NCBI RefSeq assembly: GCF_013315695.1
Contig: NZ_CP054353.1
Source: Escherichia coli
GTDB taxonomy: Bacteria; Pseudomonadota; Gammaproteobacteria; Enterobacterales; Enterobacteriaceae
Reading direction: 5' to 3' (one strand)
DNA length: 64,000 bases
Below are positions 7,887 to 49,229 of the stretch, piece by piece. Each line of letters opens with the position of its first letter. Within the stretch, counting starts at the first letter, position 1. The position numbers and the translations under genes were made by a program. The notes under the pieces were generated by a model. It worked only from the letters and a program-made list of their open reading frames with translations, was not told the origin of the DNA and did no database searches.

Positions 7887-8909
7887 ATGACACTTCATCG
7901 CTTTAAGAAAATCGCCTTACTTAGCGCTCTTGGCATTGCCGCAATCTCTATGAATGTGCAGGCCGCAGAGCGTATTGCATTTATTCCCAAACTGGTTGGC
8001 GTGGGATTTTTTACCAGCGGTGGCAACGGCGCACAACAAGCGGGTAAAGAGCTGGGCGTTGATGTGACCTACGACGGGCCGACAGAACCCAGTGTTTCTG
8101 GTCAGGTACAGTTGATTAATAACTTCGTCAATCAGGGCTATAACGCCATTATCGTTTCTGCGGTTTCGCCTGATGGCTTGTGTCCGGCACTGAAACGCGC
8201 CATGCAACGTGGTGTGAGAGTGCTGACCTGGGACTCTGATACTAAACCGGAGTGCCGCTCTTACTACATTAATCAGGGAACGCCCGCCCAGTTGGGAGGT
8301 ATGTTGGTGGATATGGCGGCGCGTCAGGTGAATAAAGACAAAGCCAAAGTCGCGTTTTTCTACTCAAGCCCCACCGTTACGGACCAAAACCAGTGGGTGA
8401 AAGAAGCGAAAGCGAAAATCGCCAAAGAGCATCCAGGCTGGGAAATTGTCACTACGCAGTTTGGCTATAACGATGCCACTAAATCGTTACAAACCGCAGA
8501 AGGAATATTAAAAGCCTATAACGATCTCGACGCCATTATCGCCCCCGATGCCAATGCCCTGCCCGCTGCCGCACAAGCCGCAGAAAACCTGAAAAATGAC
8601 AAAGTTGCGATTGTCGGATTCAGTACGCCAAACGTGATGCGTCCATATGTGGAACGCGGCACGGTGAAAGAATTTGGCCTGTGGGATGTGGTTCAGCAAG
8701 GCAAAATATCAGTTTATGTCGCGGATGCATTATTGAAAAAAGGATCAATGAAAACGGGCGACAAGCTGGATATTCAGGGCGTAGGTCAGGTGGAAGTCTC
8801 GCCAAACAGCGTTCAGGGCTATGACTACGAAGCGGATGGTAATGGCATCGTACTGTTACCGGAGCGCGTGATATTCAACAAAGAGAATATCGGCAAATAC
8901 GATTTCTGA
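7887..8909 (+). CDS. lsrB: LsrB, periplasmic AI-2 binding protein
   Basis: 340 aa with signal peptide ([26 protein letters not shown]) and periplasmic sugar-binding fold; synteny. Confidence 0.9.
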
Positions 8910-41303: not shown

Positions 41304-42587
41304 TTAAAGACTTCTGGAAGGTTGCGCAGCTCTGACAACACGAAGTTGATCTTCCGCAGCGTCTTCCAGCGCACTTAAATCACGGTCTTTCACTTCTGGC
41401 ATTTTCAGCGCAGAGATTAAACCAATCACTGAATATGCCATGATCATAATGGCGATCGGATACCAGGATTCCGTCATGGTGCAGAAAATACCCGCCAGGA
41501 TAGGACCAAAACCGGAAGCGATAAGACCACCAATTTCTTTAGAAATAGCCATCCGGGTAAAGCGGTTTTTACAGCCGAACATTTCTGCCATGGTAATGTT
41601 TTCCAGAGCAAATAATCCCAGCACCGCACAGTTATGAATCACAATCAGTGCAACCATAATGGTGCTCGGGGCATAGCTTTTATCTACGATGATAGAAAGC
41701 ATTGGCCACGCCAGCACAATCGCAGAGGTATTCATAATAATATACGGGATCCGGCGACCTATTTTATCGGATAACCAACCAAGGAACGGAATGGTCATAA
41801 AGCCGAGAATCGAACTGATCATCAATGCATCTGTTGGAATTGCTTTGTTAAACAATAACGTCTGCACTAAATAGCCTGCAAGGAAAGTCTGAATTAAACC
41901 GGAGTTACCAGCCTGACCAAAACGCAGCCCTGTTGCCAGCCAGAAGGATTTGCTCTGGAACATGCTACCAGCAGGTGCAGGTTTTGCTGTCGGTTGGTTG
42001 CTGTCGTTAACCTTCTCAAAGACCGGGCTTTCTTTCAGATTCATACGCAACCAGATAGCAAAGACCATCACGACAACGCTCGCCAGGAACGGTATACGCC
42101 ATCCCCACGCCAGCAGTTCCTCTTTACTGAGAATGAAGAACATAAAGGCCCAGATTGCCGTTGCGCTTAAGGTTCCGCAGTTAGTTCCCATAGCCACAAA
42201 TGAGGAGATAATTCCGCGCTTACCTTTTGGCGCATATTCCGCCAGCATCGTACCGGCACCGGAAATTTCCGCGCCTGCCCCCAGCCCCTGAATAATACGC
42301 AGCGTCACCAGCAAAATTGGCGCAAACACACCAATTTGTGCATAGGTCGGCAGCACACCAATTAAGGTGGTACAGATCCCCATCATAGTTATGGTAATAA
42401 AGAGCACTTTTTTACGCCCGATTCTGTCGCCCATTTTGCCGAAAATAAATGCTCCGACAATACGCGCCACATAACCTGCACCGTAGGTTCCCATTGCCAG
42501 AATTAACGCCATTGCCGTTGATGATTCAGGAAAAAATATTTCATGAAACACTAACGCTGCGCCGAGCGAATATAACTGGAAATCCAT
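41304..42587 (-). pseudogene. ydfJ: MFS metabolite:H+ symporter YdfJ, 5'-truncated at the prophage junction
   Basis: 427-aa ORF begins MDFQLYS, i.e. inside the conserved N-terminal EWxDF region of this transporter family; prophage-side DNA starts immediately upstream. Confidence 0.7.
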
Positions 42588-43372: not shown

Positions 43373-43606
43373 ATGAAATCAAAAGACACCCTAAAGTGGT
43401 TCCCTGCGCAGCTTCCTGAAGTCAGAATTATCCTAGGGGATGCTGTAGTGGAAGTAGCAAAACAGGGAAGACCTATCAATACCAGAACATTGCTTGATTA
43501 CATTGAAGGAAACATAAAGAAAAAATCATGGCTGGATAACAAAGAATTATTACAAACAGCGATATCAGTTCTTAAAGACAACCAAAATTTAAATGGTAAA
43601 ATGTAA
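43373..43606 (+). CDS. ydfK: YdfK, prophage cold-shock-associated protein
   Basis: Translation MKSKDTLKWFPAQLPEVRIILGDAVVEVAKQGRPINTRTLLDYIEGNIKKK... recognised (YdfK/YnaE family). Confidence 0.9.
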   Translation: MKSKDTLKWFPAQLPEVRIILGDAVVEVAKQGRPINTRTLLDYIEGNIKKKSWLDNKELLQTAISVLKDNQNLNGKM

Positions 43607-43922
43607 TATAATAAACTTACTTTTTTATCATTTTTCCACTTTAACAACATTTTGCTCCACTTTTCCACGACCAAACAACTTGAAATCTGGTTAAAATAAC
43701 ACGCAACACTATTCTTCTTCCTTGAGTCCGCCCGGAACTCGAAAAACAAACCGAGTTAAAGCCATTTTTCACAAAATCGATTTTGGGTCTCACCAAAATT
43801 ACGGGGTTGCATACGCATTCGTTTATTTTCGAACGTGTACATACAAACATGCACAAAAATAATCAAAATTATTTTCTGAGATGCATTATGATATGAACAC
43901 CAATTTCGTATAGAGTCTCACT

Positions 43923-44513
43923 ATGTCTCGAATTTTTGCTTACTGTCGGATATCAACGCTGGATCAGACCACCGAAAATCAACGCCGGGAAATCGAAAGT
44001 GCAGGTTTTAAAATCAAACCTCAGCAAATAATCGAAGAACACATTAGCGGCTCAGCAGCAACCAGTGAGCGTCCTGGTTTTAACCGGTTGCTTGCTCGCC
44101 TGAAATGTGGTGATCAATTGATTGTGACAAAACTGGATCGCCTTGGTTGTAATGCAATGGATATCAGGAAAACAGTGGAACAACTGACCGAAACAGGTAT
44201 CAGAGTGCATTGCTTAGCATTGGGGGGCATTGACCTGACCAGTCCAACAGGAAAAATGATGATGCAAGTAATTTCAGCAGTCGCTGAATTTGAACGAGAC
44301 CTTTTACTTGAACGCACTCATTCCGGGATAGTAAGAGCCCGGGGCGCAGGGAAACGTTTTGGTCGACCACCTGTGTTAAATGAAGAACAGAAACAGGTGG
44401 TATTCGAACGGATTAAGTCAGGTGTAAGTATAAGTGCCATTGCCCGGGAATTCAAAACCTCGCGGCAAACCATTTTAAGAGCCAAAGCAAAACTTCAGAC
44501 ACCTGACATATAA
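43923..44513 (+). CDS. pinQ: Serine-recombinase DNA invertase (Pin/Gin/Hin family)
   Basis: 196 aa; N-terminal resolvase catalytic domain (YCRISTLDQ) and C-terminal HTH; prophage context. Confidence 0.9.
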
Positions 44514-44740
44514 AAAATAATCTCGGTGTGAGATGCCTTACGTCTTCCAAGCCCCCTTCCTTGCCGTAAATGGAAAGATACATCTAATTATAGAATTTAT
44601 ATGTTTTACCCTACGGCAGTGCTGGCCATTCAATATCCTGTGCAGTTGACGTATCAACACGGTTCAGCAACACCCGATACTTCTTCCAGGCTTCCCGCAA
44701 CGAGGTTTCTTCCTCCGTTGCATATACAGCTCACCTTTTT

Positions 44741-45034
44741 TCACCCACGATTAACCAACAGCCAGACCAGCAGACACGCCACCACCGGCACAGCAAAATC
44801 CATCAGGCTTGCCACATCCCACGCACGCGGATCAAAACCGCCCCACCACGGCATATTCATACGCTTGCCATGCCCGAACATTTCAATCCAGCGATATTCT
44901 GCCTGGGTATGTTCACGCGCAATGAAGAACGTACAACCAGCTATCGCCCCGTAAGCCCAGTTTCCGGTAAAAAGACCAACCAGTACCTGCGCAGCCACAG
45001 CACAAAGTGCATGAAGGAAAGGTGTTATATCCAT
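44741..45034 (-). CDS. Hypothetical small membrane protein, 97 aa
   Basis: Two hydrophobic segments flank a charged W/R-rich loop; start 11 nt after the stop of the 234-aa ORF. Confidence 0.5.
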   Translation of the reverse strand: MDITPFLHALCAVAAQVLVGLFTGNWAYGAIAGCTFFIAREHTQAEYRWIEMFGHGKRMNMPWWGGFDPRAWDVASLMDFAVPVVACLLVWLLVNRG

Positions 45035-45044
45035 TACGCCTCCT

Positions 45045-45749
45045 TTATCCGATATCGCTTCGGGAAACGGATAACAACTTTAATTCTGACTCAAGTTCAT
45101 CAACTCTTTCAGTCAGCTTCTGGATATGGTGAATCAGTGGAACAACCAGACGTTCGTACATTACACCTTCGGCAACAAGGCCATTGCTGGAAATGGTTTC
45201 CGGTGCATCATCTTCGTTGGCTGGTCGCCAGTGAACAAACTGAGGGGCAATTTCTCCTACTTCCTCGGCAATCAATCCATAGAATCCCCAGTCACGCCTG
45301 TCATTTTCGCATTGCGACCTGTACCACACAGGGCGCATCCTGAAAATGAGATCGGCGTGCTCTGAATCTATCGTCTCTACTGAATGTTTATAGCGGATAG
45401 ACGATGTTGACCGCAGCACAGACGAAATTGCAGGGTCAGGATTAAGATAAAGATTTGCCGCCGCTGTAGTTGTGCCCAATCCCCATAAATAAAACGCTTC
45501 ACGGCCAGTCAGCGGGTAAAAATCTCCGCCATAACGACCACTTTCCAGATCGTTCACTTCCACTTTGTTTTTCAGCTTATTATCAACTTCAGTTTTTGTG
45601 TATCTGGTGCTGATATCCTGCTTTGCACTGGCCATATCAGTCTGAAGCGTTGATACTTTTCCGTTAATAGAGGAAATATCTTCCTTTGCTTTACTAACAT
45701 CTCCCTTCAGCGTGGTGATGTCTCCCGGAATTACTGTTGATGTAGCCAT
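45045..45749 (-). CDS. Tail fibre/tailspike-like protein with C-terminal intramolecular-chaperone (peptidase S74-like) domain, 234 aa
   Basis: N-terminal coiled-coil-like region; C-terminal TSSIRYKHSVETID...GLIAEEVGEIAPQFV...YERLVVPLIHHIQKLTERVDELESEL resembles the autoproteolytic chaperone of endosialidase-type fibres. Motif-level recognition only. Confidence 0.5.
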   Translation of the reverse strand: MATSTVIPGDITTLKGDVSKAKEDISSINGKVSTLQTDMASAKQDISTRYTKTEVDNKLKNKVEVNDLESGRYGGDFYPLTGREAFYLWGLGTTTAAANLYLNPDPAISSVLRSTSSIRYKHSVETIDSEHADLIFRMRPVWYRSQCENDRRDWGFYGLIAEEVGEIAPQFVHWRPANEDDAPETISSNGLVAEGVMYERLVVPLIHHIQKLTERVDELESELKLLSVSRSDIG

Positions 45750-45758
45750 TTCTCTACC

Positions 45759-46040
45759 TCACATCCAGCCACGAAGTTGATGCTCAACAGCAACCGCGTA
45801 TTCATCGAATAATGACGATATTTGCGTATCCTTAATAATGCGCACGTTTACAAAATATCCATCTTCCTTAACACATACCGGTTCGCCATCTTCAGTCAGC
45901 TCTCCGGTTTCTTTGTACACGTTACCTATCACATCAATCAGAATATCATCCTGCATCGACTCGTCATTATAATAGCCAATACTTCCCATAAAGGCCGAAA
46001 AGTCGGCCCTGTCGGCAAATTTGAGTGTTAAATCTTTCAT
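45759..46040 (-). CDS. Hypothetical acidic protein, 93 aa, translationally coupled to the native stf stop
   Basis: ATG overlaps the TAA of the reconstructed stf reading frame (TAATG); no recognisable domain. Confidence 0.45.
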   Translation of the reverse strand: MKDLTLKFADRADFSAFMGSIGYYNDESMQDDILIDVIGNVYKETGELTEDGEPVCVKEDGYFVNVRIIKDTQISSLFDEYAVAVEHQLRGWM

Positions 46041-46246
46041 TAGATTGACTCCCCCATCTGAGCATCAGTCAATGCCTTGTGCCAAATACGCAGATTTCGA
46101 ACGTGTCCAAATAGGTGACGGTTGCCGGATGATGATTGACCACCAATATTAATGAAGCCTCCTGTATATTTGTGTTTTTTATAAGGAGAAAGGTGATGCT
46201 GCCAACTTACTGATTTAGTGTATGATGGTGTTTTTGAGGTGCTCCA

Positions 46247-46522
46247 GTGGCTTCTGTTTCTATCAGCTGTCCCTCCTGTTCAGCTACTGACGGGGTGGTG
46301 CGTAACGGCAAAAGCACCGCCGGACATCAGCGCTATCTCTGCTCTCACTGCCGTAAAACATGGCAACTGCAGTTCACTTACACCGCTTCTCAACCCGGTA
46401 CGCACCAGAAAATCATTGATATGGCCATGAATGGCGTTGGATGCCGGGCAACAGCCCGCATTATGGGCGTTGGCCTCAACACGATTTTACGTCACTTAAA
46501 AAACTCAGGCCGCAGTCGGTAA
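46247..46522 (+). CDS. insA: IS1 InsA
   Basis: Identical 91-aa InsA translation to copy A. Confidence 0.95.
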
Positions 46523-46944
46523 CCTCGCGCATACAGCCGGGCAGTGACGTCATCGTCTGCGCGGAAATGGACGAACAGTGGGGCTATGTCGGGGCTAAAT
46601 CGCGCCAGCGCTGGCTGTTTTACGCGTATGACAGGCTCCGGAAGACGGTTGTTGCGCACGTATTCGGTGAACGCACTATGGCGACGCTGGGGCGTCTTAT
46701 GAGCCTGCTGTCACCCTTTGACGTGGTGATATGGATGACGGATGGCTGGCCGCTGTATGAATCCCGCCTGAAGGGAAAGCTGCACGTAATCAGCAAGCGA
46801 TATACGCAGCGAATTGAGCGGCATAACCTGAATCTGAGGCAGCACCTGGCACGGCTGGGACGGAAGTCGCTGTCGTTCTCAAAATCGGTGGAGCTGCATG
46901 ACAAAGTCATCGGGCATTATCTGAACATAAAACACTATCAATAA
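46441..46944 (+). CDS. insB: IS1 InsB
   Basis: 167-aa InsB; one residue differs from copy A (G versus E near the C-terminus). Confidence 0.95.
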
Positions 46945-48379
46945 GTTGGAGTCATTACCAAGGAGAAACTACCTTAGCACCAATATTACCGTTAACCACA
47001 ACACACAATTCTCGACTTTCTGTGAATCTAAAGCCGATAATGCTTTTTCTCTCTGGTCGTTCTATAACGCTTTTATATTCTATTTTAGTGCCTTTACCAT
47101 TTGTAATGATTGCGCGTGCTCCCAAAGATGTATACCCCAAATACATATAACTTTCATCTGCAATTTCAGTTGTATCTCCCGTAGTGGAAATATTAAGAAT
47201 ACGTGCGCTACCTTCTTTGTTTGGCGATTCATCCCAATTGGTATTAACTTCTGCTAATGAACTAATAGCGGGATTGCACCAATTTAGAGAAATGGGGACC
47301 GTTACAATATCGCTGGCGCGTGTTACAGGGGATGCGCCTGTTATAATAAACGATGAAGCGCATGCCCCACCTTCAACTTGAGGGGTCGCAATATAAATAT
47401 AATCATCCGCGCCAGTGCCCACTCCTTTTGCCGGGGCATACTGAACCATTCCACCTATCATATTTTCTGTATCAAGTGCCTTAATTGTCGCCTCAAAAAA
47501 GATCCATTTGCTTGCTTCATCTTTAACAGCCCTTGCAGTAATGCGATTAGCGGCACCACCCGTCTTATCAATAGATAAATCTGTCGTATTTAAGTAAGCG
47601 TCACCTAAGAATGTGTAGGTAGAACCATCATAGTTTTCAAATCGTAATCGGCATCTTAAATTTGGAGTGCCACTTTGCACCCTGCATGATATGGTTACAT
47701 ACTTTTCTCCGCCTGTTACATCAAAACCTTTACTGCCGGAAACGGTTACTATGTTAATCGCTGAAATTTGCCCTACCATTTCTGGTTTTAATGTAAATTT
47801 TGCGTACTGGAATCCGAAATCATCTACACCTGATGCACTTAAGATCATATTTGACGACTTGTTCCATTTAGTCGGATTTGTTGAATTGATTAGCAGGTTA
47901 GTTCTTTGCCCCTCAATAAGCAGGCCATCACGTTCAAATCGTGGCTCGTCAATGGCAGCCTCTGTCAGCACACCAGATTTATTAATGTAAGTTGCTTTCG
48001 ATGCGCGTTTAAACTTTACAATCTTGTCGCCAGGCATTGTTATTTCATCGTCGCCAATAACAATTTTTTTATATGATGGCGAAAAGCCCGTAATCATATC
48101 CAGTGAATCATTAAACGGTATCCACACATCGGGCAACGGCTGCAAAACTTGTTTATACGGCTCCGCTGCCTGGCTTGCATACTCTCTGGCTGCGTCTTCA
48201 CTTGCTTTAGCTGCTGTCTGGCTTGCTGCCGATGCTTGCGCCGAGTTCGCCGCCGCAGTCTCGCTCGCCTTTGCGTTGGTTTCACTGGTTTTTGCTGCTT
48301 TTTGACTGTTAGCTGATGCAGTGGCAGAAGCAGCCGCCGCGCTTGCAGAACTGGCTGCGGCACTCTCGCTTTGGGCCGC

Positions 48380-48700
48380 TGCATCCTGACTGCTTTTCGC
48401 CGCAGTTTCACTGGCTTTGGCATTCGTTTCGCTGGTCTTCGCTGCCGTCTGGCTGGACTTTGCGTTAGTTTCACTCGTCTTCGCAGCTTTCTGGCTGTTA
48501 GCCGCAGCAGTTGCTGATCCAGCTGCTGAAGTCGCAGAACCGGCTGCCGCGCTCTCGCTTTGGGCTGCTGCAACCTGGCTGTTTTTTGCCGCAGTTTCAC
48601 TGGCTTTGGCATTCGTTTCGCTGGTTTTCGCTGCCGTCTGGCTGGACTTTGCGTTGGTTTCGCTCGTCTTTGCGGCTGTCTCGCTATTTTTCGCGTTGGT
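48380..48700 (-). repeat. Tandem 189-bp (63-codon) direct repeats inside stf
   Basis: gcagtttcactggctttggcattcgtttcgctgg... recurs at 48402 and 48591 (offset 189 bp); a more diverged copy lies upstream. Confidence 0.8.
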
Positions 48701-49229
48701 TTCTGATTTTTTGGCTGCTGTCGCGGAGTTTGCCGATGCAGTCTTTGAGGTCGCTGCCGCCTGTGCACTATTAGCTGCATTCGTTTCTGAGGTTTTCGCC
48801 GCGTTCTTCGATGATGCCGCTGCAGTTTCGGATTTCTTTGCCGCCGCTGCGCTCTGAGAGGCGGCTTCAGCGTTGCGTGCCGCTTCTTCCACCATTTCCT
48901 CAAAACGACGCAATGCCTCCGGCATGACATCATCTTCCGTCATGGCACCGAGAAAATCATTCAGCGTACCTGGTCTGGAACCTTCATAGACGGTAATGGT
49001 TCCGGCATGTGAAGGCGGAAAACCTTCAACCAGCAGGGTGACGCTGTACTGGCCATACTCAACATCCATGCTGTAACGCCCGGCTTCATCCGGATTTTCA
49101 GAGGCCACTGTGTTGACCAGTACCGTGGTGCTGTTACGCTTTGCCTTCAGTTGAATAGTGCAGTTCTGTATTGGTTTTCCCGCACCATCTTTCAGCACAC
49201 CTGAGATTTTTACTGCTGCCATATCCACT

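Follow-up and report, generated by a model that had tools for sequence, protein, structure and literature searches.

The pinQ gene of a Qin-type Escherichia coli prophage is probably the tnpR of a decayed Tn3-family transposon

We analyzed a 64,000-nucleotide stretch of the Escherichia coli chromosome (assembly GCF_013315695.1, contig NZ_CP054353.1; here called the window), in which the end of a Qin-type lambdoid prophage carries pinQ (43923-44513, + strand). This gene is an uninterrupted open reading frame (ORF) encoding a small serine recombinase of 196 amino acids, which we assign to the Tn3-family tnpR clade. We consider pinQ likely to be a tnpR gene that a decayed Tn3-family transposon has left stranded between the tail-fiber assembly gene tfa and the attachment site (att) of Rac/Qin-type phages, where it has no substrate in cis and catalyzes strand exchange poorly, if at all. 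The origin and the anatomy of the gene are established at the level of sequence, by comparison with copies that still reside in transposons and on plasmids.

We compared the PinQ protein with the two groups of recombinases to which it might belong. It contains a Resolvase domain (PF00239, residues 4 to 144; E value, 2.5e-36) followed by an HTH_7 domain (PF02796, residues 147 to 190). In protein alignments, PinQ was 35% identical to Gin of phage Mu and 38% identical to PinE of prophage e14, versus 77 to 83% identical to recombinases borne by transposons and plasmids, with 83% for the recombinase of pS84-1 (NZ_OY757127, locus L009) and 79% for that of the E. coli plasmid NZ_KY706108 (locus L011). 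The identity among Gin, Hin, Cin, and PinE is about 60% or higher, and these proteins are interchangeable in function. By identity, PinQ does not cluster with them. Beyond overall identity, PinQ shares with the recombinases of NZ_KY706108 and pS84-1 the two-domain organization and a recognition helix of 15 residues that is nearly identical. Homologs 60 to 85% identical to PinQ were found on 1,858 plasmids, mainly from Klebsiella and Escherichia, and homologs also occur in many genera. A scan of contigs with strict peptide patterns returned 10 loci, which are the basis of the comparison of upstream regions given below and are too few for a broad phylogeny.

The locus on NZ_KY706108 is a complete Tn3-family element of 6.7 kb (about positions 70093 to 76815 of the record). 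It consists of a 38-bp inverted repeat (GGGGTCCGCTTGGAAAACGGAAATTATCCCACGCTAAG, at 1824 of the locus), a divergently oriented gene for a Tn3-family transposase of 995 amino acids, a 160-bp intergenic region, the recombinase gene, three passenger genes, and a second inverted repeat (at 8509). The start of such a divergent tnpA gene (MPRRQILS…) also adjoins the PinQ homolog in three other loci (L010, L014, and L015), and pS84-1 carries a solo copy of the recombinase gene with a terminal repeat. We left the transposon of NZ_KY706108 unnamed, as literature searches on Tn5403 and on the terminal-repeat sequence returned nothing usable. DNA homology between the window and pS84-1 covers 43866-44552 (83% identity, blastn), and that with L015 starts at 43843. 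The similarity thus runs from the promoter-proximal subsites of the upstream region to the terminal repeat, and the order of upstream sites, recombinase gene, and terminal repeat is the same in the prophage and in the transposon copies.

All close homologs harbor three dyad subsites directly upstream of the gene, with half-sites of the form TGTCCGAAA/TTTCGKACA and with spacers of 8 bp in subsite I and 14 bp in subsite II; the spacer of subsite III is short, and the array ends about 20 bp before the ATG. We take this three-subsite region to be the res (resolution site) architecture of Tn3-family resolution systems. As in Tn3 and gamma-delta, a multi-subsite res immediately precedes the recombinase gene, whereas the half-sites and spacers of the PinQ clade differ from those of the classical elements. 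The window aligns position by position with the res of the homologs, and an intact three-subsite res is not present in it. The remnant of the crossover subsite I (43810-43835, + strand) reads CATACGCAT-tcgtttat-TTTCGAACG, in place of the TGTCCGAAA-8 bp-TTTCGGACA of intact relatives, and was assigned by positional homology to loci L009 to L016; it scored 3.7 bits, versus 29 to 32 bits for intact subsites. Subsite II (43850-43881, + strand; TGCACAAAA-14 bp-TTTCTGAGA) has its CG dinucleotides mutated in both half-sites and scored 4.3 bits, again versus 29 to 32 bits when intact. The promoter-proximal part (43887-43912, + strand) is made of a -10-like TATGAT, which is TATAAT in a plasmid copy, followed by the subsite III region, whose right half (TTTCGTATA, 43904-43912; 13.2 bits) is the sole well-kept half-site of the res remnant. 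Every prophage copy that we examined has lost the left half of the crossover site.

The other side of the gene holds a degenerate Tn3-family terminal inverted repeat (44522-44556, + strand), in which 26 of 38 positions matched with a 3-bp gap. It begins 9 bp past the pinQ stop codon, and the 38-bp end of pS84-1 has the same offset. None of 20,000 random 41-mers drawn from the window reached its score. It carries 12 changes, including the 3-bp deletion, and is a remnant and not a working end. Unlike the complete element, the pinQ locus has neither a transposase gene nor a second terminal repeat, and a tblastn search of the window with the transposase of NZ_KY706108 yielded no trace of it (best E value, 0.29). 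These features would be explained if an ancestral Rac/Qin-type lambdoid phage had captured a Tn3-family transposon in the interval from tfa to the attachment site, and if that transposon had then decayed, losing its transposase half and leaving the recombinase gene between an eroded res, with the promoter, and a terminal inverted repeat that is eroded as well.

We then analyzed the catalytic residues of PinQ. The motif LDRLGR reads LDRLGC in this protein, and the cysteine, Cys76 (TGT, 44148-44150), aligns with R71 of gamma-delta resolvase (R71 of Tn3 resolvase) and with the corresponding arginine of Gin. An arginine occupies this position in 11 of the 11 other proteins aligned (nine homologs of the PinQ clade, Gin, and PinE), as well as in the representatives of the recombinant and plasmid-type clusters; the cysteine was found in PinQ and PinR of K-12, in a cluster of 2,148 members, and in one sister prophage lineage (P0009). 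In Tn3 resolvase, R71 belongs to the six residues rated most critical, and the R71A and R71K substitutions abolished detectable resolution in vivo and slowed cleavage about 1000-fold (PMC2794168). The other catalytic residues are kept: PinQ has equivalents of Y6, R8, S10, Q14, Q19, R45, D67, R68, and E118 of the Tn3 and gamma-delta resolvases, and its Ser11 is encoded at 43953-43955, while D36 is a glutamate throughout the clade. The preliminary description of the stretch regarded pinQ as full length, which is correct for the ORF and both domains, with the caveat that codon 76 replaces the catalytic arginine. In PinQ, both the fold and the nucleophilic serine are kept, as is a DNA-binding helix nearly identical to that of the transposon copies, and the loss of the R71-equivalent arginine is predicted to weaken catalysis, leaving at best a slow strand exchange.

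The ratio of nonsynonymous to synonymous substitution rates (dN/dS) was 0.15 between pinQ and the pS84-1 gene and 0.37 between the two cysteine-containing lineages, compared with 0.04 to 0.07 among transposon and plasmid copies. The values for pinQ, 3 to 8 times those of the transposon copies, indicate that it evolves under relaxed constraint and not by neutral drift. Prophage and plasmid copies do recombine, as seen from a mosaic pin gene in a prophage of GCA_910593615.1 (locus L023, 5840-6591): its proximal res and about three quarters of the coding sequence from the N-terminal end, including Arg76, are of the plasmid/transposon type, and PinQ-type sequence makes up the C-terminal tail and the flank downstream. 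As for what PinQ does at present, its most likely activity would be DNA binding, with residual autoregulation through the half-site retained past the -10 element and before the start codon, and it possibly binds related sites elsewhere.

A few other relatives have features of their own. Many large Klebsiella pneumoniae plasmids (170 to 350 kb) contain an unannotated, 75%-identical copy of the recombinase that covers only residues 1 to 170 and was probably also left behind by a decayed transposon of this family. In Erwinia oleae (contig83; locus L013, 1299-2649), two genes of the PinQ clade stand divergently back to back with two res-like sites between them. Erwinia phage LS-2018a, whose record carries no annotation, encodes a homolog 61% identical to PinQ, and we saw no informative repeat structure around that gene.

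We searched the window for crossover sites of the invertase type with a position-weight matrix of half-sites, built from gix (gixL and gixR of Mu) and pix (e14 of K-12) sites read in this work and from hix and cix half-sites. The e14 sites read CTCTCGAAAACC-TT-GGTTTGGGAGAA for pixL and TTCTCCCAAACC-AA-CGTTTATGAAAA for pixR. Known sites scored 19.7 to 31.5 bits, and the maxima of shuffled windows averaged 9.8 bits. No full gix-, pix-, hix-, or cix-type site (12 + 2 + 12 bp) was found in the 64 kb, the best score being 5.2 bits, and an inverted-repeat search around the gene revealed no convincing repeat flanking pinQ. The claim of the preliminary description that pinQ is an orphan with no intact invertible segment is therefore upheld, including against its own proviso that computation might find a full pair of crossover sites, and its observation that the neighboring fiber genes all lie on one strand is confirmed, the strand being the minus one. 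The two weak gix-like half-sites that it pointed out did not survive. Both strings are present, but the upstream one (43740-43761, + strand; an exact match) had a full-site score of -18 bits and the downstream one (44692-44713), which lies within the coding sequence of a tfa remnant, a score of -23 bits. The window contains three copies of each of their 8-mers, AAACCGAG and CGAGGTTT, versus about two expected. In Qin, Rac, mEp460, and 2H10, the downstream string has the form CGAGATTT, and its likeness to gix hangs on one base specific to the window.

Three further candidates for a rearrangement were considered and rejected. The two strings might have been hybrid sites, produced by an ancient inversion between pix and a pseudo-site; the scores of both, however, are well under background, the likeness of the downstream one depends on a window-specific single-nucleotide polymorphism in tfa coding sequence, and tfaQ homology runs 18 bp past its center. 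A 17-nucleotide inverted repeat (43832-43848 and 45907-45923) is attributed to chance; 7.4 kb hold 70 pairs of this kind, and phages with other fiber modules lack it. A 12-nucleotide direct repeat, TTTCGAACGTGT (43827-43838 and 46095-46106), would bracket pinQ and the fiber module. Its first copy takes in the right half of res subsite I, its second falls within stf coding sequence, the repeat exists only with this fiber module, and its local alignment score has a p value of about 9e-4 per 101-mer, so that about one such match is expected per window; we ascribe it to chance as well. With subsite I degenerate, a single res remnant, and no invertase-type site in the window, PinQ has no local substrate, and no rearrangement of the locus is expected.

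We then looked into the layout around pinQ in phages and in other genomes. Proteins 99 to 100% identical to PinQ are encoded in 11 phage records, and the five that we examined (mEp460_ev081, 2H10, Tritos, Kati, and PhiR63_1) have a common order: J, lom in some cases, stf, tfa or a fiber module of the window's type, a converging pin gene, a ydfK-like gene, and att/int. The module of the window's type adjoins pin in Tritos and PhiR63_1. The fiber genes of all five phages are on one strand, and a second fiber cassette is absent from them. The pairing of pinQ with a ydfK gene at the prophage end is conserved in Qin, in Rac, and in the five phages, and a collinear ydfK-pinQ-tfa 3' block was found in 2,677 of 5,426 complete E. 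coli genomes. The identical layout in five phages and in about half of the complete E. coli genomes means that no fiber cassette has been lost: pinQ was never paired with an invertible one. The orientation of the gene also differs from that of fiber invertases, since the 5' end of the invertase gene abuts the invertible segment in Mu and e14, whereas pinQ faces the fiber genes with its 3' end.

Several points count against the reading of pinQ as a stranded tnpR with impaired catalysis. We know of no member of PinQ's exact clade that has been biochemically tested as a resolvase. The best match of PinQ among solved structures was the invertase Gin (105 bits; E value, 2.7e-29), which ranked above the gamma-delta and Tn3 resolvases (82 bits with phmmer; E value, about 2.5e-22); by these structure-match scores, the transposon clade of PinQ therefore sits nearer to the invertases than to classical TnpR. 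The core of subsite I in the clade, AAACC-GGTC-GGTTT, resembles the invertase core AAACC-NN-GGTTT. When the whole window was searched for the terminal repeat without guidance, the best matches fell elsewhere, at the null level; the remnant stands out only at the expected position, so that the case for it rests on position plus sequence. Thousands of genomes have the ORF intact, and its dN/dS is still below 1, which implies that some function of PinQ is under selection. Finally, Kirigo et al. (2025) reported that K-12 PinQ inverts in trans the 1,797-bp P segment of e14 and that this inversion gives rise to a chimeric StfE2, which blocks the adsorption of phage T2 (PMC12529663). In their peer-reviewed study, pCA24N-pinQ raised P-segment inversion from 30% to 88%, and deletion of pinQ lowered it (PMC12529663). 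Such a shift upon overproduction and deletion argues that PinQ is not inert.

The PinQ of the window differs from the K-12 protein only at residues 3 and 158; the protein, the locus, and the att-side neighbors are essentially the same, unlike the fiber module and the IS1 copy found here. The results with K-12 PinQ can be read to mean that PinQ is an active invertase working in trans on the pix sites of e14, whose local target is missing by design, and we keep this explanation as a minority view. Survivors of T2 infection that overproduced PinQ carried the inverted P segment, deletion of stfP, stfE, or e14 abolished the effect of PinQ, and T2 infection induced pinQ/pinR 14-fold (PMC12529663). 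Cross-recognition is not absurd either, as the outer half of pixL (CTCTCGAAAACC) and the half-site of the PinQ clade share a CGAAA(A)C core. However, according to the strain list, PinQ was overproduced solely in pinE+ backgrounds, and a pinE deletion mutant was locked in the noninverted state despite intact pinQ and pinR, PinR being 99% identical to PinQ (PMC12529663). PinE thus appears necessary, and direct catalysis by PinQ is not separated in these experiments from an effect of PinE. The trans-invertase explanation is further weakened by the missing R71-equivalent arginine, by a central spacing of 4 bp in the crossover site of the PinQ clade versus 2 bp in pix, and by the location of e14 outside the window. 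No inversions were found in Qin or Rac themselves (PMC12529663). A different and rather unlikely role, which we mention tentatively, is that PinQ and PinR are catalytically crippled former resolvases kept as DNA-binding "pseudo-recombinases," which would bias the PinE-catalyzed inversion of e14 by binding to pix-like half-sites or by pairing with PinE; if this were so, the relic of one recombinase would regulate the switch of another prophage.

Two more explanations place the target of PinQ at the locus itself, and we find both very improbable. According to one of them, PinQ is a fiber invertase of the Gin/Pin type whose adjacent cassette and crossover sites were removed by deletion as the prophage decayed. 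The name of the gene, its tail-fiber neighbors, the similarity to Gin, and the PHROG label "DNA invertase" speak for this, and PinQ does share with Gin, Hin, Cin, and PinE (of Mu, Salmonella, P1, and e14, respectively) the small serine recombinase fold and a partly similar half-site core (CGAAAC versus AAACC). Yet PinQ is far closer in identity to transposon-borne recombinases than to Gin or PinE, its gene converges on the fiber genes, contrary to the arrangement in Mu and e14, and the flanks hold remnants of res and of a transposon inverted repeat in place of 26-bp pix-type sites and an alternative fiber cassette. The five phages, with complete fiber genes and the identical layout, have no second cassette, and invertase-type sites in these related loci scored at most 7.3 bits, versus 30 bits for the e14 and Mu controls; no relative more than 70% identical to PinQ was found beside an alternative fiber cassette flanked by inverted repeats among the loci examined. 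The other explanation holds that PinQ is a working resolvase acting on its own upstream site, for example to resolve dimers of the phage genome or tandem double lysogens. The res-then-recombinase order and the module as a whole are kept in sequenced phages, and tandem lysogens or circular dimers would supply two directly repeated copies of the site. Against this stand the scores of subsites I and II, which are indistinguishable from background, the loss of the left half of the crossover site in all prophage copies examined, and the missing catalytic arginine. The preliminary description had left open whether pinQ is a relic or acts in trans. We retain the first option, as a relic of a transposon and not of a Gin/Pin-type invertase, and the second agrees with the published claim on e14.

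The reading of pinQ as a former tnpR differs from what is found about the gene in the literature. The e14 study does not mention Tn3, has the words "resolvase" and "catalytic" only where it introduces serine recombinases in general, and says nothing of the missing arginine (PMC12529663). No paper linking pinR with Tn3 and resolvase was found in the searchable literature, and neither the transposon ancestry of pinQ nor Cys76 was found there; the kind of object that we describe is well known. The genes pinQ and pinR occur in about half of the complete E. coli genomes and are routinely annotated "DNA invertase," an annotation that needs correcting if the resolvase reading is true. In that case, the sites to look for are of the TGTCCGAAA type and not of the gix type, and the reported inversion in trans needs a pinE-free control before being called direct. 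The 2025 paper rests a new class of antiphage defense on PinQ being an invertase. The missing invertible segment is then no longer a puzzle, since none existed, and the locus itself does nothing unusual.

The features that surround pinQ are those of a prophage end. Compared with the transposon copies, pinQ stands in a phage setting, beside ydfK and tfa. The Qin-type prophage adjoins ydfG-rspR-ydfZ-ydfI-ydfJ', and from the prophage end rightward come ynfT, ydfK, a 316-bp spacer, pinQ on the plus strand, and then the minus-strand fiber genes. The ydfJ gene (41304-42587), whose 5' end is cut off at the prophage boundary, is described with a "missing N-terminus" in NZ_CP118407, and marks the Qin-type att junction. 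The ydfK gene (43373-43606, + strand) encodes a cold-shock protein of the YnaE family and is annotated in NZ_CP118407, a 100%-identical record. The conserved spacer between ydfK and pinQ contains a perfect 14-bp palindrome, CAAAATCGATTTTG (43772-43785), just upstream of the res remnant and adjoining the first of the two gix-like strings; chance alone would produce about four palindromes of this kind in 64 kb.

Past pinQ, the minus strand carries, in order, the tfa remnant, a 97-amino-acid ORF, a protein with an S74 domain, a 93-amino-acid ORF, stf, lom, and J. The first of these is the C-terminal remnant (37 codons; 44611-44721, - strand) of a tail-fiber assembly gene of the tfaQ/tfaR type, identified by alignment and annotated as a pseudogene in NZ_CP118407. 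Its homology to Qin, Rac, and mEp460 ends at about 44721, where a different fiber module starts; the sharp break within tfa, at 44721/44722, is a module-swap junction that leaves 37 codons of the tfaQ/tfaR type. The fiber module (44741-46191, on a single strand throughout) is composed of the 97-amino-acid ORF (44741-45034, - strand), a 234-amino-acid fiber protein with an S74 chaperone domain (45045-45749, - strand), the 93-amino-acid ORF (45759-46040, - strand), and the 3' end of the side-tail-fiber gene stf (46040-46191, - strand). The stf gene is interrupted by an IS1 of 768 bp (46192-46959, + strand) with 23-nucleotide terminal inverted repeats and the insA and insB ORFs, and its 5' portion (46960-49228, - strand) encodes an N-terminal domain of the lambda Stf type (PF08400; E value, 6.8e-67). 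NZ_CP118407, otherwise 100% identical to the window, lacks this IS1 and has an intact stf of 801 amino acids.

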